From Escherichia coli (GTDB lineage: Bacteria; Pseudomonadota; Gammaproteobacteria; Enterobacterales; Enterobacteriaceae), in the NCBI RefSeq assembly GCF_024298765.1, contig NZ_CP101210.1: a stretch of DNA of 64,000 nt, one strand, 5' to 3'. Positions 25,067 to 59,960 of this stretch are shown here, one piece after another. The position numbers were made by a program, and so were the translations under genes. The stretch's first letter is position 1; every line of letters begins with the position of its first letter. The notes under the pieces were generated by a model that was not told the DNA's origin, ran no database searches, and saw only the letters and a list, made by a program, of their open reading frames with translations.

Positions 25067-26344
25067 TTACTTGCTGCTAGCCATTGCGGGGGCGCTATCA
25101 GCAGTACGAATTTTTTGGAACAGCAAAAAGGTAAAGATGATCACCATGGCAAGCGCCGCCATACCCATTAGCCACATGTTGCGGTAGGCTTCTGCAGCGG
25201 GCAGGGTGTCTTGCCAGTAGCCGATAATCGGGTAAACGAAGACATCCGGCAGGAATCCAATCACCGAACAAATACCTACCGTGGTGCCCATAATGTAAGA
25301 CGGTGTTCTCGCTTCGCCAGGGCAGGCCCAGTACAGCCCGCGTGAGGCGTAACAGGTGAATCCCAGCAGTAAAATCAGGCCAATCCCCATCGCGACCGAT
25401 TGCGGGTTAGAGTTCGTGACGAGCAGGGCAGTTAACGCCAGCAAGCCGAGTACGGAAAGGATTTGGATCACGCGGGTAGGGGATTTCACTTTGCTGTAGG
25501 TGGTGATAATGCCACCAAGTGGGCCGCACAGTGCGCGGAAGATTTTGTTGATCACAATCCCCATGTAGCTCGCCGCCACCAGCGACATGCCGTACATTTC
25601 GGTCAGATAGTTGGTGGAGTAACTCAGAATGGCGTAGATAGTGAAGACACCAAAAATCACCATGCTGCAATACCAGGTGGTACTGATACGCAAAACGGCC
25701 AGGATATCGCTAAGCTGGAATGACTGTTTTTCTTCGTTATTGGTACTGCGCAGGTTGTTGTTATCGCTAACAAAAAACCAGCACAGAATCCCCAACAAGA
25801 TGTAAACCACACTGTAGATAATAATGACTGTTTTCAGGCTGGCGCTGTCATCCGGCGCAAAGCGAGAAAAGACCCACATGGTAAACACCGCCAGCGACAT
25901 TACACCGACGCCGCGCAGCCCTTCCATCCAGCCCATAATTTTCCCTTGCTCACTATGATCGCCCAGCAATGAGGCGGCTTTAATCGACACCGACCACAGC
26001 ATTAAAATCGTCGTTATCGCAAAGGCGACCTGAATACAGAGCATTACCCACAGCGGTGGATACGTTGCCATTAACAGACCCAGTAATCCGGTAATGATCA
26101 TCGCGGAAGTAATCATTTTGCGGTGTGAAAATTTATCGGCAATAACGCCGCTGGGGGCATAAAGAATAATAGCTGCAATACCAAAGGTACTCATTATTAA
26201 ACCTATCTCGGTATTGCTGAATCCCATAAATTTCGCCATGGGAATTTGATAAATATAACGTAAATAAGCCAGGTCGAAACTAACGCCGCCGCTAAAACTA
26301 ATTATCGCGAGGGTTATCCAACGGCGATATGAGTTGTGTTGCAT
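25067..26344 (-). CDS. yqcE: MFS transporter
   Basis: 425-aa hydrophobic ORF immediately upstream of ygcE on the same strand (27-bp gap); likely an operon. Confidence 0.85.
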   Translation of the reverse strand: MQHNSYRRWITLAIISFSGGVSFDLAYLRYIYQIPMAKFMGFSNTEIGLIMSTFGIAAIILYAPSGVIADKFSHRKMITSAMIITGLLGLLMATYPPLWVMLCIQVAFAITTILMLWSVSIKAASLLGDHSEQGKIMGWMEGLRGVGVMSLAVFTMWVFSRFAPDDSASLKTVIIIYSVVYILLGILCWFFVSDNNNLRSTNNEEKQSFQLSDILAVLRISTTWYCSMVIFGVFTIYAILSYSTNYLTEMYGMSLVAASYMGIVINKIFRALCGPLGGIITTYSKVKSPTRVIQILSVLGLLALTALLVTNSNPQSVAMGIGLILLLGFTCYASRGLYWACPGEARTPSYIMGTTVGICSVIGFLPDVFVYPIIGYWQDTLPAAEAYRNMWLMGMAALAMVIIFTFLLFQKIRTADSAPAMASSK

Positions 26345-26465
26345 ATCGTATTCCCATTTGTAATAGACAAAAAAAAGAGAAAAGTAAGCCGCCCTTTCAG
26401 GTGGATTACTTTTCTCAGGTCTCTAGTAATTGCAATAAGAAATAACATGGAAAGCAGAGGTGTTG

Positions 26466-26481
26466 TGTGAGAGTAATCACG
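26466..26481. promoter_or_regulatory. Near-consensus CRP site (TGTGA-N6-TCACg) in the yqcE/ygcW divergent promoter region
   Basis: TGTGAGAGTAATCACG read directly. Confidence 0.45.
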
Positions 26482-26522
26482 CTTCTGCTTTTTAAAATTA
26501 TTTGACAATTCGAATATCACAC

Positions 26523-26538
26523 TGTGATTACGATCACA
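26523..26538. promoter_or_regulatory. Perfect-consensus CRP site (TGTGA-N6-TCACA) in the yqcE/ygcW divergent promoter region
   Basis: TGTGATTACGATCACA read directly; overlaps a second palindrome TCACACTGTGA. A TTGACA hexamer lies at 26502-26507. Confidence 0.6.
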
Positions 26539-26592
26539 TTAGCGATTATGCCCTTATGCTAAAAATTATCTCCAGTTACCAGAGATAATGAG

Positions 26593-26638
26593 AAAGGTAA
26601 CTTCCCTCTCGCGGGGGAAGTTACCTTTCTTTTTTTTT
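26593..26638 (+). terminator. Intrinsic-terminator-like hairpin in the ygcW 5' leader (candidate attenuator)
   Basis: 14-bp perfect stem (AAAGGTAACTTCCC / GGGAAGTTACCTTT), 8-nt loop, then a 9-T run at 26630-26638; ends 25 nt before the ygcW ATG. Confidence 0.6.
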
Positions 26639-26662
26639 GCCTTACGGAAATTGGAGCTAACT

Positions 26663-27448
26663 ATGTCAATCGAATCTCTCAATGCGTTCTCAATGGATTT
26701 TTTCTCCCTGAAAGGTAAAACCGCAATTGTTACCGGCGGGAATAGCGGTTTAGGCCAGGCATTTGCCATGGCGCTGGCCAAAGCAGGCGCAAATATCTTT
26801 ATTCCAAGCTTCGTTAAAGATAACGGCGAAACAAAGGAAATGATTGAAAAACAGGGTGTTGAAGTGGACTTCATGCAGGTGGATATCACCGCAGAAGGCG
26901 CACCGCAGAAGATTATCGCTGCCTGCTGTGAGCGCTTCGGTACCGTCGATATTCTGGTTAACAATGCCGGTATTTGTAAACTGAATAAGGTGCTGGACTT
27001 CGGTCGTGCCGACTGGGACCCGATGATTGACGTGAACCTGACCGCCGCATTCGAGTTAAGCTACGAAGCAGCAAAAATTATGATCCCGCAGAAAAGCGGT
27101 AAAATCATTAATATCTGTTCATTGTTCTCTTACTTAGGTGGACAATGGTCACCTGCATATTCTGCCACTAAACATGCTCTTGCCGGGTTCACCAAAGCTT
27201 ATTGTGATGAACTAGGTCAATATAATATTCAGGTAAATGGTATTGCCCCTGGCTATTATGCAACAGATATTACGCTGGCGACACGCAGTAATCCAGAAAC
27301 CAATCAGCGCGTTCTTGATCATATTCCGGCAAACCGTTGGGGCGATACTCAGGATTTAATGGGCGCAGCCGTGTTTCTCGCAAGTCAGGCATCGAATTAT
27401 GTCAACGGGCATTTATTAGTGGTCGATGGCGGTTATTTAGTGCGCTAA
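26663..27448 (+). CDS. ygcW: Short-chain dehydrogenase/reductase (SDR)
   Basis: Track ORF 26588-27448 trimmed to the ATG at 26663 (MSIESLN, 261 aa) with SD GGAG; TGGNSGLG Rossmann motif. Confidence 0.85.
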   Translation: MSIESLNAFSMDFFSLKGKTAIVTGGNSGLGQAFAMALAKAGANIFIPSFVKDNGETKEMIEKQGVEVDFMQVDITAEGAPQKIIAACCERFGTVDILVNNAGICKLNKVLDFGRADWDPMIDVNLTAAFELSYEAAKIMIPQKSGKIINICSLFSYLGGQWSPAYSATKHALAGFTKAYCDELGQYNIQVNGIAPGYYATDITLATRSNPETNQRVLDHIPANRWGDTQDLMGAAVFLASQASNYVNGHLLVVDGGYLVR

Positions 27449-27517
27449 TCCATAACGGTGGTTTCTGTTTTCTCTTATTAATGATTATTCCATTTTTATT
27501 ATCAGGAAGGAATTACT

Positions 27518-28972
27518 ATGTCTTTATCTCGCGCAGCGATTGTCGACCAGCTAAAGGAAATTGTTGGTGCAGATCGCGTAATTACCGATGAAACGGTATT
27601 AAAGAAAAACAGTATTGACCGTTTTCGTAAATTTCCGGATATTCATGGAATTTATACTTTGCCGATTCCGGCAGCGGTCGTAAAACTCGGTTCTACAGAA
27701 CAAGTATCCCGTGTGCTGAATTTTATGAATGCGCACAAAATTAACGGTGTGCCACGTACCGGTGCTTCCGCCACCGAAGGTGGGCTGGAAACCGTTGTGG
27801 AAAACTCGGTGGTGCTCGACGGCTCCGCCATGAATCAAATCATTAATATTGATATTGAGAATATGCAGGCCACGGCGCAATGTGGCGTTCCGCTGGAGGT
27901 GCTGGAAAACGCGTTGCGTGAAAAAGGTTACACCACGGGGCATTCTCCGCAGTCAAAGCCGCTGGCGCAGATGGGCGGCCTGGTGGCGACCCGCAGTATC
28001 GGGCAGTTTTCCACACTCTACGGCGCAATCGAGGATATGGTCGTTGGTCTGGAAGCGGTGCTGGCAGATGGCACCGTCACACGCATTAAAAACGTGCCAC
28101 GTCGCGCGGCTGGCCCGGACATTCGTCATATCATCATTGGCAACGAAGGTGCACTGTGCTATATCACTGAAGTCACAGTGAAAATCTTCAAATTTACGCC
28201 GGAAAACAATCTCTTCTATGGCTATGTGCTGGAAGACATGAAAACCGGCTTCAACATCCTGCGTGAAATCATGGTGGAAGGGTATCGTCCGTCGATCGCT
28301 CGTTTGTATGACGCTGAAGATGGCACCCAACACTTCACCCATTTTGCCGATGGTAAATGTGTGCTGATCTTTATGGCTGAAGGTAACCCTCGCATTGCGA
28401 AGGCGACAGGCGAAGGGATTGCTGAAATCGTGGCACGTTACCCGCAATGCCAGCGAGTGGACAGCAAGCTGATCGAAACCTGGTTTAATCACCTGAACTG
28501 GGGGCCGGATAAAGTGGCCGCTGAACGTGTGCAGATCCTCAAAACCGGCAACATGGGCTTTACCACCGAAGTGTCCGGCTGCTGGAGCTGCATCCACGAA
28601 ATCTACGAAAGCGTTATTAACCGTATTCGTACCGAGTTCCCGCATGCCGACGACATCACCATGCTGGGCGGTCACTCCTCTCATAGCTATCAGAACGGCA
28701 CCAACATGTACTTCGTCTACGACTACAACGTCGTTGACTGTAAGCCGGAAGAGGAAATCGACAAGTACCACAATCCGCTCAACAAAATCATCTGCGAAGA
28801 AACCATTCGCCTCGGTGGTTCGATGGTGCACCACCACGGTATCGGTAAACATCGCGTTCACTGGAGCAAACTGGAACACGGCAGCGCGTGGGCGTTGCTG
28901 GAAGGGCTGAAAAAGCAGTTCGATCCTAACGGCATTATGAATACGGGTACTATCTATCCGATTGAAAAATAA
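27518..28972 (+). CDS. ygcU: FAD-linked oxidase (PCMH-type FAD-binding; alkyl-DHAP synthase / D-lactate dehydrogenase-like)
   Basis: 484-aa ORF. Confidence 0.85.
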   Translation: MSLSRAAIVDQLKEIVGADRVITDETVLKKNSIDRFRKFPDIHGIYTLPIPAAVVKLGSTEQVSRVLNFMNAHKINGVPRTGASATEGGLETVVENSVVLDGSAMNQIINIDIENMQATAQCGVPLEVLENALREKGYTTGHSPQSKPLAQMGGLVATRSIGQFSTLYGAIEDMVVGLEAVLADGTVTRIKNVPRRAAGPDIRHIIIGNEGALCYITEVTVKIFKFTPENNLFYGYVLEDMKTGFNILREIMVEGYRPSIARLYDAEDGTQHFTHFADGKCVLIFMAEGNPRIAKATGEGIAEIVARYPQCQRVDSKLIETWFNHLNWGPDKVAAERVQILKTGNMGFTTEVSGCWSCIHEIYESVINRIRTEFPHADDITMLGGHSSHSYQNGTNMYFVYDYNVVDCKPEEEIDKYHNPLNKIICEETIRLGGSMVHHHGIGKHRVHWSKLEHGSAWALLEGLKKQFDPNGIMNTGTIYPIEK

Positions 28973-29013
28973 TGTGTCAGGCAGCGTTCCGCGATGACGG
29001 GGCGTTGCCTTTT

Positions 29014-29043
29014 CGGCTTCTCAGGCGAGAAGCCGTTCTTATT
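29014..29043 (+). terminator. Terminator-like hairpin between ygcU and ygcS (possible internal attenuator)
   Basis: CGGCTTCTC-AGGC-GAGAAGCCG (9-bp stem) followed by TTCTTATT; 22 nt upstream of the ygcS ATG. Confidence 0.45.
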
Positions 29044-29065
29044 ACCGGACAATGAAGGGGTAAAG

Positions 29066-30403
29066 ATGAACACTTCACCGGTGCGAATGGATGATTTACC
29101 ACTTAACCGTTTTCACTGCCGCATTGCTGCGCTCACTTTCGGCGCACACCTGACCGACGGTTATGTCCTCGGCGTCATTGGTTACGCCATTATTCAGCTT
29201 ACACCCGCCATGCAACTGACGCCGTTTATGGCGGGAATGATCGGCGGCTCGGCGCTACTTGGCCTGTTTATCGGTAGCCTGGTTTTGGGGTGGATCTCCG
29301 ACCATATTGGTCGGCAAAAAATCTTCACCTTCAGCTTTTTGCTGATTACGCTCGCTTCGTTCTTACAATTTTTTGCCACCACGCCAGAGCATCTTATTGG
29401 ACTGCGCATTTTGATCGGCATTGGTCTGGGAGGCGATTACTCAGTCGGTCACACTTTGCTGGCTGAATTTTCTCCGCGCCGCCATCGCGGTGTTTTGCTG
29501 GGCGCATTCAGCGTGGTGTGGACCGTAGGCTATGTGCTGGCAAGTATTGCCGGACATCACTTTATTAGCGAAAGCCCGGAGGCCTGGCGCTGGCTACTGG
29601 CATCGGCAGCTCTGCCCGCATTGTTGATTACGTTATTACGCTGGGGAACGCCAGAATCGCCACGCTGGCTACTGCGCCAGGGGCGTTTTGCAGAAGCTCA
29701 CGCTATCGTGCATCGCTATTTTGGTCCCCATGTTTTACTGGGCGATGAAGTGGCAACGGCGACCCATAAACACATCAAAACCTTGTTCTCTTCGCGCTAC
29801 TGGCGGCGCACAGCGTTTAACAGCGTCTTCTTTGTCTGCCTCGTAATCCCATGGTTTGTGATTTATACCTGGCTGCCGACCATCGCCCAAACTATTGGTC
29901 TGGAAGATGCGCTGACAGCCAGCCTGATGCTTAATGCGTTGTTAATTGTGGGCGCGCTGCTGGGATTAGTTCTGACGCACCTGCTGGCACATCGCAAATT
30001 TTTGCTGGGAAGTTTTTTGCTGCTGGCGGCAACGCTGGTCGTGATGGCCTGTTTGCCTTCCGGCAGTTCATTAACGCTGCTGCTTTTTGTTCTCTTCAGC
30101 ACCACCATTTCGGCAGTCAGTAATCTGGTGGGCATTTTGCCTGCGGAAAGTTTTCCTACTGACATTCGCTCGCTGGGCGTCGGTTTTGCCACCGCCATGA
30201 GTCGACTTGGCGCGGCGGTAAGTACTGGCCTGCTGCCGTGGGTGCTGGCGCAGTGGGGAATGCAAGTCACCTTATTGCTCCTGGCGGCAGTGTTGTTGGT
30301 TGGTTTTGTTGTGACCTGGCTATGGGCACCAGAAACCAAAGCACTCCCGCTGGTGGCGGCGGGAAATGTAGGAGGTGCGAATGAACATTCTGTTAGCGTT
30401 TAA
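29066..30403 (+). CDS. ygcS: MFS transporter
   Basis: Track ORF 28994-30403 trimmed to the ATG at 29066 (MNTSPVRMDD, 445 aa) with SD GAAGGGG. Confidence 0.85.
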   Translation: MNTSPVRMDDLPLNRFHCRIAALTFGAHLTDGYVLGVIGYAIIQLTPAMQLTPFMAGMIGGSALLGLFIGSLVLGWISDHIGRQKIFTFSFLLITLASFLQFFATTPEHLIGLRILIGIGLGGDYSVGHTLLAEFSPRRHRGVLLGAFSVVWTVGYVLASIAGHHFISESPEAWRWLLASAALPALLITLLRWGTPESPRWLLRQGRFAEAHAIVHRYFGPHVLLGDEVATATHKHIKTLFSSRYWRRTAFNSVFFVCLVIPWFVIYTWLPTIAQTIGLEDALTASLMLNALLIVGALLGLVLTHLLAHRKFLLGSFLLLAATLVVMACLPSGSSLTLLLFVLFSTTISAVSNLVGILPAESFPTDIRSLGVGFATAMSRLGAAVSTGLLPWVLAQWGMQVTLLLLAAVLLVGFVVTWLWAPETKALPLVAAGNVGGANEHSVSV

Positions 30404-31160
30404 AGCCGAACCGGATGCCGGAATGCTGGCGGAAAAAGAGTGGCAGGCGGCGGCTCAGGGTAATAGCGGACCGGATGTTTCGCTTCTGCGAAGTTTACTC
30501 GGTGCTGATGAACAGGCTGCCGCCGCGCTGCTGTTGGCGCAGAGAAAAAACGGTACGTCGATGTCTTTAACCGCGTTGAGCATGGGGGATGAACGGGCGT
30601 TGCACTGGCTGCGCTATCTCATGGCTCTTGGGTTTGAGGAAGCTGTAGTGCTGGAGACGGCGGCAGATCTGCGCTTTGCGTCGGAATTTGTCGCTCGCCA
30701 TATTGCCGAATGGCAGCGTCAGAATCCGCTGGATCTGATAATTACCGGCTGCCAAAGCAGCGAAGGGCAGAATGGACAAACGCCATTTTTGCTGGCGGAA
30801 ATGCTGGGCTGGCCCTGTTTCACCCAGGTGGAGCGTTTCACTCTCGACGCGCCGTTTATCACCCTCGAACAGCGTACTGAACATGGGTTGCGCTGTTGCC
30901 GGGTTCGCTTGCCTGCGGTGATTGCCGTGCGCCAGTGTGGTGAAGTGGCCTTGCCAGTACCGGGAATGCGCCAGCGAATGGCTGCGGGGAAAGCAGAAAT
31001 TATCCGTAAAACTGTTGCTGCCGAATTGCCAGCGATGCAGTGTCTGCAACTGGCAAGAGCAGAGCAACGACGCGGAGCGACGCTGATTGATGGGCAAACG
31101 GTAGCAGAAAAAGCGCAAAAGCTATGGCAGAACTATTTACGCCAAAGGATGCAGCCATGA
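30381..31160 (+). CDS. ygcR: Electron transfer flavoprotein beta-subunit-like protein
   Basis: Start at ATG 30381 with SD AGGAGG 6 nt upstream (259 aa); overlaps the ygcS 3' end. Confidence 0.82.
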   Translation: MNILLAFKAEPDAGMLAEKEWQAAAQGNSGPDVSLLRSLLGADEQAAAALLLAQRKNGTSMSLTALSMGDERALHWLRYLMALGFEEAVVLETAADLRFASEFVARHIAEWQRQNPLDLIITGCQSSEGQNGQTPFLLAEMLGWPCFTQVERFTLDAPFITLEQRTEHGLRCCRVRLPAVIAVRQCGEVALPVPGMRQRMAAGKAEIIRKTVAAELPAMQCLQLARAEQRRGATLIDGQTVAEKAQKLWQNYLRQRMQP

Positions 31161-32017
31161 ATATCACAATTGTGACAATAAATCAGGAGAATGCCGCAAT
31201 AGCAAGCTGGCTGGCGGCACAGGATTTCAGCGGTTGTACCCTGGCGCACTGGCAGATTGAACCTCAGCCCGTAGTGGCGGAACAGGTGCTGGATGCGCTG
31301 GTGGAACAGTGGCAGCGAACGCCAGCGGACGTTGTTCTCTTTCCGCCGGGAACGTTTGGCGATGAACTGTCGACCCGGCTGGCCTGGCGTTTACATGGTG
31401 CAAGCATCTGCCAGGTGACTTCGTTAGATATTCCAACTGTAAGCATGCGCAAATCCCACTGGGGAAATGCGCTAACGGCGACGCTGCAAACAGAAAAACG
31501 CCCGCTATGCCTTTCCCTTGCCCGCCAGGCGGGAGCACTGAAAAACGCCACGTTGCCCTCTGGTATGCAGCAACTGAACATTGTCCCCGGCGCGCCTCCA
31601 GACTGGCTTATCAGCGTCGAAAACCTGAAAAATGTTACCCGCGATCCATTAGCTGAAGCCAGACGGGTGCTGGTGGTGGGGCAGGGCGGAGAGGCAGATA
31701 ACCAGGAAATCGCTATGCTGGTAGAAAAGCTGGGAGCCGAAGTGGGCTACAGTCGGGCGCGAGTGATGAACGGTGGCGTTGATGCTGAAAAAGTGATTGG
31801 TATTTCCGGACATCTGCTGGCGCCTGAGGTGTGTATTGTTGTTGGCGCTTCCGGCGCAGCAGCGTTAATGGCGGGCGTACGCAATAGCAAGTTTGTGGTG
31901 GCGATTAATCATGACGCCAGCGCGGCGGTATTTTCACAGGCAGATGTTGGCGTGGTTGATGACTGGAAAGCGGTGCTGGAGGCACTGGTGACAACCATTC
32001 ACGCAGATTGCCAATAA
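31157..32017 (+). CDS. ygcQ: Electron transfer flavoprotein alpha-subunit-like protein
   Basis: Track ORF 31124-32017 trimmed to the internal ATG at 31157 (MNITIVT, 286 aa); overlaps the ygcR stop. Confidence 0.82.
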   Translation: MNITIVTINQENAAIASWLAAQDFSGCTLAHWQIEPQPVVAEQVLDALVEQWQRTPADVVLFPPGTFGDELSTRLAWRLHGASICQVTSLDIPTVSMRKSHWGNALTATLQTEKRPLCLSLARQAGALKNATLPSGMQQLNIVPGAPPDWLISVENLKNVTRDPLAEARRVLVVGQGGEADNQEIAMLVEKLGAEVGYSRARVMNGGVDAEKVIGISGHLLAPEVCIVVGASGAAALMAGVRNSKFVVAINHDASAAVFSQADVGVVDDWKAVLEALVTTIHADCQ

Positions 32018-32163: not shown

Positions 32164-32739
32164 TCAAAGCAATTTTTTCGCTAACGTCCAGACCCCGGTA
32201 TTCGTGGTGGAAAGCGCCACAACACCCGCGTTAATCGCATTACGCGCATCTTCTTCATCGCACACCAGCCCGCCGGCAATCAGCGGTTGGCGGATTTTCT
32301 CCGTCACCCAGCCCAGCACTTTAGGCATACAGCCTGGCAGGATCTCAATACAATCCGGATTCGATTGCGCAACTTGCTTATCAATGTTGTGAAACGAAAT
32401 CGAATCAACAATAAACAGGCGATGAATACAGAAAAAACCTTCCGCTCTTGCCGCTTTCAACATTGAGGCTTTGGTACTGATAATGCCGTCCGCCTCAGTC
32501 ACCAGTTTCAAAAACTGAATCACCACTTCTTTATTTGACGCGCCTTCCAGCAAATCAACATGAATAAAAGCATATTTTCCGGCATTTTTAATCTTTTTAA
32601 CGATTTGACTAATGGTGCAGATATTGCCGTACAACACGGAAATAAACTGGCATTCAGAGTCGATTGCCAGTTGCAGGCTGGCATTATCTTTAACGGCAGC
32701 AATCACCGGATTCTGGCGGAGCAGGTGTAAGAGGGGCAT
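32164..32739 (-). CDS. ygcP: GlpP-family (glycerol-3-phosphate responsive) antiterminator-like protein
   Basis: 191-aa ORF. Confidence 0.82.
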   Translation of the reverse strand: MPLLHLLRQNPVIAAVKDNASLQLAIDSECQFISVLYGNICTISQIVKKIKNAGKYAFIHVDLLEGASNKEVVIQFLKLVTEADGIISTKASMLKAARAEGFFCIHRLFIVDSISFHNIDKQVAQSNPDCIEILPGCMPKVLGWVTEKIRQPLIAGGLVCDEEDARNAINAGVVALSTTNTGVWTLAKKLL

Positions 32740-36836: not shown

Positions 36837-38548
36837 TGAGCGAAAAACATCCAGGGCCTTTAGTGGTCGAAGGAAAACTGACAGACGCCGAGCGCATGAA
36901 GCTTGAAAGCAACTACCTGCGCGGCACCATTGCGGAAGATTTAAACGACGGTCTGACCGGCGGCTTTAAGGGCGACAACTTCCTGCTGATCCGCTTCCAC
37001 GGCATGTATCAGCAGGATGACCGCGACATCCGCGCCGAACGTGCTGAACAGAAGCTGGAGCCGCGCCACGCGATGCTGTTGCGCTGCCGTCTGCCGGGTG
37101 GCGTGATCACCACCAAACAGTGGCAGGCGATAGACAAATTTGCCGGTGAAAACACCATCTATGGCAGCATTCGCCTGACCAACCGCCAGACGTTTCAGTT
37201 CCACGGCATTCTGAAAAAGAACGTCAAACCGGTGCACCAGATGCTGCACTCGGTCGGCCTTGATGCGCTGGCGACTGCTAACGACATGAACCGTAACGTA
37301 CTCTGCACCTCGAACCCTTACGAGTCGCAACTGCACGCGGAAGCATATGAATGGGCGAAGAAAATCTCTGAACATCTGCTGCCTCGTACCCGCGCGTATG
37401 CGGAGATCTGGCTCGATCAGGAAAAAGTCGCCACTACTGATGAAGAGCCGATCCTTGGTCAGACCTACCTGCCGCGTAAGTTCAAAACCACGGTAGTGAT
37501 CCCGCCGCAGAACGATATCGATCTGCACGCCAACGACATGAACTTCGTGGCAATCGCCGAAAACGGCAAGCTGGTGGGCTTTAACCTGCTGGTGGGCGGT
37601 GGGCTTTCCATCGAACATGGCAACAAGAAAACCTACGCCCGCACGGCGAGTGAGTTTGGCTATCTGCCGCTGGAGCATACGTTGGCAGTGGCGGAAGCCG
37701 TCGTGACAACTCAGCGTGACTGGGGTAACCGAACCGATCGTAAAAATGCCAAAACCAAATACACGCTGGAGCGCGTAGGGGTTGAGACGTTTAAAGCGGA
37801 AGTTGAACGTCGCGCGGGGATCAAATTCGAGCCGATTCGCCCGTATGAGTTTACCGGACGCGGCGATCGTATTGGCTGGGTTAAGGGCATTGATGATAAC
37901 TGGCACCTGACGCTGTTTATCGAAAATGGTCGCATTCTTGATTATCCGGGACGTCCGCTGAAAACCGGCTTGCTGGAGATCGCGAAGATCCACAAAGGTG
38001 ATTTCCGCATTACGGCGAACCAGAATCTGATCATCGCCGGCGTGCCGGAAAGCGAGAAAGCGAAGATCGAGAAGGTCGCCAAAGAAAGCGGGTTAATGAA
38101 TGCCGTCACGCCGCAGCGTGAAAACTCAATGGCCTGCGTGTCATTCCCGACTTGCCCGCTGGCGATGGCGGAAGCGGAGCGTTTCCTACCGTCTTTTATC
38201 GACAACATCGATAATTTAATGGCGAAACATGGTGTCAGCGATGAGCATATCGTGATGCGTGTAACAGGCTGCCCGAACGGTTGTGGTCGCGCGATGCTGG
38301 CGGAAGTGGGTCTGGTGGGGAAAGCGCCGGGTCGCTACAACCTGCATCTTGGCGGCAACCGCATTGGGACACGTATCCCACGGATGTATAAAGAAAACAT
38401 CACCGAGCCGGAAATCCTGGCGTCGCTTGATGAACTGATAGGGCGCTGGGCGAAAGAGCGCGAAGCGGGTGAAGGCTTCGGCGACTTTACGGTGCGTGCG
38501 GGCATCATTCGCCCGGTGCTCGATCCGGCGCGCGATTTGTGGGATTAA
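36836..38548 (+). CDS. cysI: Sulfite reductase [NADPH] hemoprotein beta component
   Basis: 570-aa ORF with siroheme/4Fe-4S cysteine motifs (CPNGCGRA); start overlaps the cysJ stop. Confidence 0.95.
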
Positions 38549-58820: not shown

Positions 58821-59960
58821 ATGAGCGCGGGAAGCCCAAAATTCACCGTTCGCCGCATTGCGGCTTTGTCACTGGTTTCGCTATGGCTGGCAGGCTGTTC
58901 TGACACTTCAAATCCACCGGCACCGGTCAGCTCCGTTAATGGCAATGCGCCTGCAAATACCAATTCTGGTATGTTGATTACGCCGCCGCCGAAAATGGGG
59001 ACGACGTCTACAGCGCAGCAACCGCAAATTCAGCCGGTACAGCAGCCACAAATTCAGGCTACTCAACAACCGCAAATCCAGCCAGTACAGCCAGTAGCTC
59101 AGCAGCCGGTACAGATGGAAAACGGACGCATCGTCTACAACCGTCAGTATGGGAACATTCCGAAAGGCAGTTATAGCGGCAGTACCTATACCGTGAAAAA
59201 AGGCGACACACTTTTCTATATCGCCTGGATTACTGGCAACGATTTCCGTGACCTTGCTCAGCGCAACAATATTCAGGCACCATATGCGCTGAACGTCGGT
59301 CAGACCTTACAGGTGGGTAATGCTTCCGGTACGCCAATCACTGGCGGAAATGCCATTACCCAGGCCGACGCAGCAGAGCAAGGAGTTGTGATCAAGCCTG
59401 CACAAAATTCCACCGTTGCTGTTGCGTCGCAACCGACAATTACGTATTCTGAGTCTTCGGGTGAACAGAGTGCTAACAAAATGTTGCCGAACAACAAGCC
59501 AACTGCGACCACGGTCACAGCGCCTGTAACGGTACCAACAGCAAGCACAACCGAGCCGACTGTCAGCAGTACATCAACCAGTACGCCTATCTCCACCTGG
59601 CGCTGGCCGACTGAGGGCAAAGTGATCGAAACCTTTGGCGCTTCTGAGGGGGGCAACAAGGGGATTGATATCGCAGGCAGCAAAGGACAGGCAATTATCG
59701 CGACCGCAGATGGCCGCGTTGTTTATGCCGGTAACGCGCTGCGCGGCTACGGTAATCTGATTATCATCAAACATAATGATGATTACCTGAGTGCCTACGC
59801 CCATAACGACACAATGCTGGTCCGGGAACAACAAGAAGTGAAGGCGGGGCAAAAAATAGCAACCATGGGTAGCACCGGAACCAGTTCAACACGCTTGCAT
59901 TTTGAAATTCGTTACAAGGGGAAATCCGTAAACCCGCTGCGTTATTTGCCGCAGCGATAA
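58821..59960 (+). CDS. nlpD: Murein hydrolase activator lipoprotein NlpD (LysM plus M23 peptidase domain)
   Basis: 379-aa ORF; lipobox LAGCS, Q/P-rich repeats, LysM and M23 domains. Confidence 0.92.

Follow-up and report, generated by a model that had tools for sequence, protein, structure and literature searches.

In the 64,000-nucleotide stretch of Escherichia coli DNA that we analysed (contig NZ_CP101210.1; hereafter the window), the genes yqcE (25067-26344, minus strand) and ygcW (26663-27448, plus strand) diverge around a 319-bp intergenic region and belong to a cluster annotated in the order ygcE-yqcE / ygcW-ygcU-ygcS-ygcR-ygcQ / ygcP-ygcO-ygcN. Our results suggest that this region carries one four-part module twice: a class II site for CRP (cAMP receptor protein) ~41-43 bp upstream, an extended -10 element, a leader of ~65-75 nt that opens with a conserved 33-nt element, and a terminator. 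We consider it probable that the cluster is controlled in two layers, with CRP-dependent initiation followed by read-through that would depend on YgcP, a GlpP-family protein encoded in the cluster. A first-pass annotation of the window had predicted CRP control of both divergent transcription units, with the implication that the genes are on when CRP is on. The control itself is well supported, but the implication is incomplete: both transcripts meet strong intrinsic terminators before their start codons, and CRP therefore cannot be the whole story. The candidate YgcP-dependent attenuator was found neither in Rfam nor in the searchable literature; together with the two-layer architecture, it provides a concrete, testable regulatory model for one of the remaining uncharacterised catabolic clusters of E. 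coli.

CRP sites and promoters between yqcE and ygcW

Transcription start sites were taken from published differential RNA sequencing (dRNA-seq; Romero et al. 2014, PMC4681348) and transferred to the window through an alignment with K-12, in which the intergenic region shows 5 substitutions and no indels, with the CRP sites and leaders unchanged. The features of the two promoters are as follows.

26523-26538 (centre 26530.5): ygcW-proximal CRP site TGTGATTACGATCACA, 0 mismatches to TGTGA-N6-TCACA
26466-26481 (centre 26473.5): yqcE-proximal CRP site TGTGAGAGTAATCACG (CGTGATTACTCTCACA on the yqcE strand), 1 mismatch to TGTGA-N6-TCACA
26570-26574, plus strand: ygcW start cluster, dRNA-seq RVS_(I)-2898388, range 2898384-2898388 (PMC4681348)
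26430-26431, minus strand: yqcE start site, dRNA-seq FWD_(I)-2898527, range 2898527-2898528 (PMC4681348)
26557-26565, plus strand: extended -10 of the ygcW promoter, TGcTAAAAA, read from the sequence, with TGnTA conserved across species
26439-26447, minus strand: extended -10 of the yqcE promoter, TGtTATTTC, read from the sequence, with an ATGnTAT block conserved across species

The perfect site is centred at -39.5 to -43.5 from the ygcW start cluster and the near-consensus site at -42.5 to -43.5 from the yqcE start; in a chromatin immunoprecipitation sequencing (ChIP-seq) study of enterotoxigenic E. coli (ETEC), CRP sites lay most often ~40.5 bp upstream of start sites (PMC4287617). No -35 hexamer is present at either promoter, the CRP site sitting in its place, and a consensus scan called no sigma-70 promoter at either mapped start. 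The start-site mapping thus argues that each CRP site serves one promoter from the class II position, and the region reads as two back-to-back class II CRP promoters with one site per promoter. Both sites very probably act as class II activators, and we infer that CRP activates rather than represses and that the near-consensus site is occupied by it. Two sigma-70 promoters proposed from Shimada 2014 and a pattern scan (TTGACA-16-TGTGAT and TTCTCA-18-GATAAT) were rejected, as they disagree with the dRNA-seq starts. Cooperative tandem CRP sites are also unlikely, given the off-phase centre spacing of 57 bp and its variation between 36 and 173 bp in other genera.

The first-pass annotation had assigned both sites to the yqcE/ygcW divergent region, which agrees with the gene annotation, and its coordinates and match quality for the two sites were confirmed in the sequence. 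We also scored the sites with a weight matrix, a check that it had proposed. A search for TGTGA-N6-TCACA with at most one mismatch returned four matches in 64 kb (mean of 1.54 in shuffled sequence; at least four in 6 of 100 shuffles). The matrix was built from 106 CRP ChIP-seq sites of ETEC H10407 (PMC4287617), with the locus's own site excluded. The perfect site scored 18.56 bits, the highest value in the window, and exceeded 95% of the ChIP sites; at this score, 0.003 sites would be expected in 64 kb. Ranked fourth, the near-consensus site reached 13.68 bits, above 59% of the ChIP sites (median 13.0), a score for which 0.6 sites are expected per 64 kb and 0.003 per 319-bp intergenic region. 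Both sites thus fall within the range of bound sites, although the near-consensus one is borderline by sequence alone, and it is its position and conservation that make it a convincing candidate. Ranks 2 and 5 are held by TGCGACCACGGTCACA (59504-59519) and CGTGATGCGTGTAACA (38251-38266); both belong to the matrix training set, being intragenic ETEC CRP ChIP-seq peaks listed as (nlpD) and (cysI)/cysH, respectively.

Conservation of the two sites was assessed on 80 loci obtained from a YgcW scan, onto which the cluster proteins were then mapped (L numbers below denote these and further loci of our set). Two CRP-like sites with at most two mismatches were present in 41 of 42 Enterobacterales spacers, with one extra weaker match in two spacers. 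The genera with sites include Escherichia, Citrobacter, Klebsiella, Raoultella, Enterobacter, Pluralibacter, Mixta, Yokenella, Serratia, Rahnella, Ewingella, Buttiauxella, Limnobaculum, Budvicia, Pantoea, and Erwinia. Measured to the ATG of its own gene, the ygcW-side site is at 131-144 bp in 41 of the 42 spacers; the yqcE-side site is mostly at ~128-148 bp, although a few species have it as far away as 198 bp. Across species, the two sites are separated by 36-173 bp, but by 56-58 bp throughout the Enterobacteriaceae (L003-L030) despite poorly conserved DNA in between. Of the 44 ygcW modules, 36 have the CRP centre 43.5 bp from the first leader base, and of the 41 yqcE modules, 40 have it at 42.5 or 43.5 bp. 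This near-fixed distance to the leader, combined with a variable distance between sites, indicates that each site is tied to its own promoter. The half-sites are at least 90% conserved, whereas the ygcW-side N6 and the intersite DNA are not. The same arrangement was found in Vibrio hannami, where TGTGAGCATTTTCACA lies ~41 bp upstream of its own leader.

Several side observations concern the same spacer. Of the two N6 spacers, the one on the yqcE side, GAGAATAATC, is the better conserved. A GATC (Dam) sequence lies in the right half of the perfect site (26532-26535), and our literature search returned nothing showing that methylation matters there. In Limnobaculum eriocheiris (L032:3057-3186), the yqcE-ygcW spacer is only 130 bp long and contains neither CRP sites nor a leader element; it holds a single hairpin with an A run on one side and a T run on the other, which makes it a bidirectional terminator, apparently the product of a deletion that fused both leader terminators. 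A second palindrome, TCACACTGTGA, had been described as overlapping the perfect site. The sequence is indeed present at 26517-26527, but it is not conserved: its upstream TCACA half occurs in 1 of 42 distinct orthologous spacers and is missing even in E. albertii and E. whittamii. We therefore rejected it as the site of a second regulator and regard it as probably incidental.

The perfect CRP site appears in three published data sets, and this part of our results adds little by itself. The site was predicted computationally in 2007 (PhyloScan), is a high-confidence CRP ChIP-seq peak 'ygcW/yqcE' in ETEC (PMC4287617), and was bound in vitro in Footprint-seq with an estimated dissociation constant of 1.7 nM, in a 2026 preprint that lists it as novel (PMC12871828). 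In addition, yqcE-ygcE is listed as a 'Crp activation' operon validated by electrophoretic mobility shift assay (EMSA), with a positive promoter fragment and Crp-type expression across carbon sources (PMC8085971). That CRP binds the perfect site is thus practically certain, and the predicted control of both units is supported by the published ChIP-seq, Footprint-seq, and EMSA results together with start-site geometry and conservation. In our literature search, no publication named the near-consensus site, and none gave data on ygcW from a crp mutant; b2774 came up in one paper, where the number stands by mistake for ilvC.

Leader terminators and the conserved 33-nt element

Downstream of the two promoters, the leaders comprise the following features, in which R1 denotes the covariance model described below.

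26590-26638, plus strand: ygcW leader intrinsic terminator, a 19-bp hairpin (26590-26631) that shares its final two bases with the start of the T9 run (26630-26638), ending 25 nt before the ATG at 26663
26369-26416, minus strand: yqcE leader intrinsic terminator, a hairpin (26416-26377) and T8 run (26376-26369), ending 25 nt before the ATG at 26344
26570-26643, plus strand: ecr2774, spanning the ygcW start site to the T run
26431-26368, minus strand: ecr2775, spanning the yqcE start site to the T run
26572-26604, plus strand: ygcW leader element CCAGTTACCAGAGATAATGAGAAAGGTAACTTC, R1 52.5 bits, E 6.7e-11
26402-26433, minus strand: yqcE leader element GCAATTACTAGAGACCTGAGAAAAGTAATCCA, R1 44.7 bits, E 1.2e-8, with one stem pair being A-U instead of G-C

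The terminator hairpins have predicted energies of -34.2 kcal/mol (z -5.9) for ygcW and -21.6 kcal/mol (z -4.7) for yqcE, and the lower terminator stem is 99% paired across 46 leaders. The short RNAs ecr2774 (73 nt) and ecr2775 (63 nt) were reported as 'potential novel sRNAs', simple stem-loops that are perhaps REP-like (repetitive extragenic palindromic; Romero et al. 2014, Table S5, PMC4681348); ecr2775 was confirmed by northern blot, and its abundance varies with the medium (Romero et al. 2014). We found no later paper citing either RNA. Since both run exactly from the mapped start sites to the T runs, ecr2774 and ecr2775 are the terminated leaders of ygcW and yqcE, and under the standard conditions of Romero et al. 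transcription from both promoters evidently stops short of the genes after most initiations. It is highly probable that the terminators are conditional attenuators.

Both leaders open with the 33-nt element GTTACY-AGAGA-N3-4-GAGAAARGTAAC, which, written as (A/G)TTACY-AGAGA-N-GAGAAARGTAA(C/T), has exactly two matches in 64 kb. The module common to both sides follows the pattern (T/C)GTGATTAC..TCACA, 36-37 nt, TTACYAGAGA-N2-3-TGAGAAARGTAAY. In the ygcW leader, the element would form a 7-bp stem, AGUUACC/GGUAACU, around an AGAGA...GAGAAA loop, and the 3' strand of this stem lies within the 5' arm of the terminator. The element stem alone is weak (-6.7 kcal/mol for ygcW and -1.4 kcal/mol for yqcE), and the element can pair with the terminator 5' arm as an alternative pairing. 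Across the 46 leaders the stem is 94% paired, compared with 17-52% in slid controls. Three of the seven stem pairs change on both sides (G-C/A-U in 33 vs. 12 sequences, U-A/C-G in 28 vs. 15, and A-U to G-C once), and the last of these changes is seen again in three distant taxa (L025, L061, L083).

These changes also bear on the possibility that GTTAC-N15-GTAAC is a DNA operator for a dimeric repressor at +1 to +33, which we regard as very improbable. An inverted repeat just downstream of the start site is a common operator position. However, the two copies in one genome differ in the stem yet stay complementary (GTTAC/GTAAC vs. ATTAC/GTAAT), GTTGC/GCGAC arose three times, and the loop is asymmetric, variable in length (15-19 nt), and found in one orientation relative to the downstream gene. 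Moreover, every copy is fused to a terminator, and the annotation of the E. coli cluster includes no DNA-binding regulator.

The covariance model R1 (33 positions) was seeded with 34 of 65 element variants, namely those without insertions, and the model aligned the rest; a MAFFT alignment of all 65 variants was set aside because it misplaced 3-nt loop insertions. In 1.44 Mb, R1 gave 115 matches, and those in the window are only the two expected copies. Pair counts in the R1 alignment agree with those of the first set of 46 leaders. Two copies were found at nearly every Enterobacterales locus fetched, and the element also occurs in Clostridia; copies outside the seed were recovered in Geosporobacter, Anaerosolibacter, Sporomusa, Cohnella, and several metagenome-assembled genomes. 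Every copy examined in detail precedes a terminator whose 5' arm starts at GAGAAA. Searches of Rfam returned nothing near the gathering score in 26200-26800 of the window, even at E <= 10, and nothing at element copies in seven other loci.

In Firmicutes there are two to three copies per locus, before ygcW, ygcU, and a divergent gene (Clostridia L055, L056, L060, L062, L064, L065; Listeria booriae L083). In each Firmicute copy, the terminator 5' arm begins at GAGAAAAGTAAC, and each copy lies a few nt downstream of a TTGACA-17-TATAAT-type promoter; a TTGACA-17-TATAAT/TATACT promoter thus stands where enterobacteria have the CRP site. Two consensus patterns for cre (catabolite-responsive element, CcpA) sites gave no match near the Firmicute copies. 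The leader module is thus shared between phyla, with CRP sites as the form that its promoter takes in enterobacteria and Vibrio.

This distribution has to be weighed against the simpler view that the CRP sites alone control the divergent promoters, with the hairpins being leaky or constitutive terminators, REP-like elements, or decay products, and the genes expressed by basal read-through. The classification of ecr2774 and ecr2775 by Romero et al. is in its favour, as is the Crp-type behaviour of yqcE-ygcE mRNA across carbon sources, which implies some read-through without a known inducer. Nevertheless, we consider CRP-only control unlikely. The primary sequence 5' of the terminators is conserved beyond the needs of a hairpin, across phyla and in two to three copies per locus before cluster genes, and terminators of this strength with T8-T9 tails would waste most initiations. 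REP or BIME (bacterial interspersed mosaic element) sequences come in many dispersed copies, mostly at 3' or intergenic positions and with no tie to particular genes. Here, only two copies exist in the 64-kb window, both 5' of cluster genes with no dispersed copies elsewhere in it, and the same element precedes orthologous genes in other phyla.

It is also conceivable that ecr2774 and ecr2775 are trans-acting small RNAs (sRNAs) under CRP control, comparable to CyaR or Spot 42, and that their position upstream of ygcW and yqcE is a coincidence. Both are short, discrete, and abundant transcripts, each with a start site of its own and a terminator with a long U tail, and their abundance depends on growth medium. 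Against this, the copies are always directly upstream of cluster genes and on the same strand (three per locus in Clostridia, also before ygcU), and the conserved part overlaps the terminator rather than providing a free seed, which makes a trans-acting role quite improbable. Attenuated leaders remain our preferred reading of both RNAs.

One further candidate was rejected at this position. A 286-aa open reading frame (26588-27448, plus strand), which extends ygcW to an in-frame ATG at 26588, is an artefact: this ATG lies within the leader element, ahead of the terminator, and has no conserved counterpart in the paralogous yqcE-type leader copies.

YgcP as a candidate antiterminator

The only regulator-like gene annotated in the E. 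coli cluster is ygcP, and we propose its product as the trans-acting factor for both leaders. The genes concerned are the following.

32164-32739, minus strand: ygcP, GlpP-family protein by annotation (PF04309)
23562-26344, minus strand: yqcE-ygcE unit, 3' of the yqcE leader; yqcE is a major facilitator superfamily (MFS) transporter and ygcE an FGGY-family kinase
26663-32017, plus strand: ygcW-ygcQ unit, 3' of the ygcW leader; ygcW is a short-chain dehydrogenase/reductase (SDR), ygcU a flavin adenine dinucleotide (FAD) oxidoreductase, ygcS an MFS protein, and ygcR and ygcQ electron transfer flavoprotein

YgcP matches PF04309 (G3P_antiterm, 'glycerol-3-phosphate responsive antiterminator') over positions 1-173 of 173 (E 1.6e-62) and is 28% identical to Bacillus subtilis GlpP. 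We compared the occurrence of ygcP and the element at the 72 loci that keep ygcW with ygcU or ygcE, 53 of which have ygcP in range. The element was present at 51 of these 53 loci vs. 4 of the 19 without ygcP (Fisher 4e-10), and outside Enterobacterales at 9 of 10 vs. 1 of 15 (p 4.6e-5). Among the four element-positive loci without ygcP, two are on truncated contigs and one belongs to a genome with ygcP on another contig. A search starting from YgcP orthologues gave a similar picture, with ygcP adjoining ygcU, ygcW, ygcE, and an MFS gene in Listeria booriae, Vibrio hannami, and Halobacillus salinarum, and all three loci carry the element before their first genes (R1, E 6e-6 to 1.5e-8). By its distribution, the element follows ygcP and not the enzymes, which points to a protein partner rather than a riboswitch.

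A small metabolite-binding riboswitch, acting on the terminator without a protein, would account for a conserved 5' element that overlaps a terminator and has a covarying stem and a conserved loop, and for its position before catabolic and transport genes in several phyla. However, a single stem of 5-7 bp with an open, purine-rich loop and an energy of -1.4 to -6.7 kcal/mol is small and simple for a ligand pocket, and no Rfam family matches it. The element is also absent from ygcW-ygcE-ygcU clusters that lack ygcP, while a protein-independent switch would not need ygcP. We thus consider a riboswitch improbable, and the tracking of the element with ygcP likewise counts against control by CRP alone.

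The reading that we favour is a protein-dependent one, in which YgcP is probably the antiterminator of both leaders. In this model, cAMP-CRP at each class II site would recruit RNA polymerase and be required for initiation. By default, the nascent leader would fold into the terminator and transcription would stop, yielding ecr2774 and ecr2775. Ligand-activated YgcP would bind the 5' element and keep GGUAAC/GAGAAA out of the terminator, and might do so by stabilising the weak stem or by sequestering the GAGAAA base of the terminator 5' arm. With the terminator blocked, polymerase would read into yqcE-ygcE and ygcW-ygcQ. By analogy with GlpK, glycerol-3-phosphate, and GlpP, the FGGY kinase YgcE may generate the inducer as its phosphorylated product. 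In its most specific form, to which we lean only slightly, the proposal states that the 33-nt element is the RNA recognition site of YgcP and represents a second specificity class of GlpP-family antiterminators in Firmicutes, Vibrio, and Enterobacterales. The ygc cluster would then be a GlpP-type regulon in which antitermination and class II CRP activation form an AND gate, with ecr2774 and ecr2775 as attenuated leaders.

These arguments need to be interpreted with caution, as several points weigh against them. The covariation of the element stem comprises few independent events and is partly a comparison of paralogous leaders, and one stem pair is unpaired in ~30% of sequences. The co-occurrence of element and ygcP is confounded by phylogeny, since the loci without ygcP are mostly from Actinobacteria and Deltaproteobacteria. 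Our literature search found no paper on YgcP function and none that ties YgcP to leaders. The resemblance to the B. subtilis glpD and glpFK leaders (see below) was judged by eye on two sequences and amounts to a common layout plus a GAGA-rich stretch, and R1 run with filters off on the B. subtilis glpP-glpFK-glpD locus gave a best E of 3, i.e., no detection. At the promoters, the perfect site lies 57 bp from the near-consensus one, so that separate occupancy of the latter is a prediction, as is the direction of the CRP effect at ygcW. Finally, the spacer (26345-26662) was bound by RpoD holoenzyme in genomic SELEX (systematic evolution of ligands by exponential enrichment) and flagged 'HNS' (Shimada 2014), with H-NS binding thus reported there as well. 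H-NS silencing could be a third layer of control.

The model would explain two orphan small RNAs as attenuated leaders, as well as a cluster that is near-silent when CRP is active but the inducer is missing, and YgcP together with a defined 33-nt RNA offers handles towards both inducer and substrate. If it is true, a GlpP-type antitermination system would be added to the E. coli repertoire, and the known cis-regulatory RNAs would gain a family that is conserved between phyla but has no Rfam entry. The exchange of a sigma-A promoter for a CRP promoter between phyla would then represent a conserved leader module re-plugged into different global controls.

Beyond Enterobacterales, a conserved cluster of YgcW (70-80% identity), YgcU, and YgcE occurs in Firmicutes, Actinobacteria, Deltaproteobacteria, and Vibrio (L053-L082, L083-L085). 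Electron transfer flavoprotein genes often lie alongside, and the arrangement suggests a widespread catabolic pathway. NCBIfam holds no YgcP model, and YgcE, YgcU, and YgcW reach no equivalog-level cut-off there. The stretch 26000-27000 of the window is 100% identical to E. coli strain 104 and is present in 5076 of 5426 complete genomes. In the RefSeq record of the identical strain, a CRISPR (clustered regularly interspaced short palindromic repeats) array is annotated between queE and ygcE (window ~22408-22924; L001 8409-8925), and ygcG and a neighbouring open reading frame are annotated as frameshifted pseudogenes.

Comparison with known systems

The two promoters resemble known class II CRP promoters in having a site centred near -41.5, no -35 element, and an extended or weak -10. 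They differ from these, and from divergent CRP pairs, in that two separate class II sites lie 57 bp apart and off helical phase, and in that each promoter has its own attenuator downstream.

Within E. coli, a related combination is found in the bgl operon, a catabolic operon in which cAMP-CRP is needed for initiation and a protein then stabilises an RNA fold overlapping the leader terminator in its 5' arm; the bgl locus is also associated with H-NS. The ygc cluster would share with bgl (BglG and its RAT, the ribonucleic antiterminator) a CRP-dependent promoter, leader antitermination as proposed here, and H-NS. BglG, however, is a CAT/PRD protein under the control of phosphotransferase system (PTS) phosphorylation and is unrelated to PF04309, the RAT sequence differs from our element, and bgl has one promoter, compared with two divergent modules in ygc.

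More distant parallels are HutP and PyrR, in which a protein recognises short purine-rich repeats or a small leader hairpin and thereby alters terminator formation; HutP reportedly binds XAG-rich regions. Like these, YgcP is proposed to be a leader-binding attenuation protein, but the protein families and RNA motifs are unrelated, and PyrR promotes termination.

The closest comparison is with GlpP of B. subtilis (glpD, glpFK, glpTQ), whose regulated promoters are described as combining a core promoter with a GlpP binding site and a 5' untranslated region (UTR) terminator (PMC9604022). In both systems, a PF04309 protein is encoded with the pathway genes, and each target has a promoter, a protein-binding leader (predicted in the case of ygc), and an intrinsic 5' UTR terminator. 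Both pathways include a transporter, an FGGY kinase, and an FAD-dependent dehydrogenase, and both place a global catabolite signal at initiation and a specific signal at the terminator, glpFK also being under CcpA. At the level of the RNA, the glpD leader has a short stem, GGUC/GACC, around a GAGA-rich loop (UGAGAUGAGGAGA) at the base of the terminator 5' arm, and glpFK has GGAGAACUCGGAGACC in the corresponding place. The differences are that YgcP is only 28% identical to GlpP, that R1 fails to detect the glp leaders, and that catabolite control of ygc runs through class II CRP sites and not CcpA. The enzymes also differ, with YgcW an SDR, YgcU a GlcD-like oxidoreductase, and an electron transfer flavoprotein in ygc, so that the inducer is probably not glycerol-3-phosphate. 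From these likenesses and differences, we infer that the ygc system would work like GlpP antitermination, with its RNA element as a distinct specificity class.

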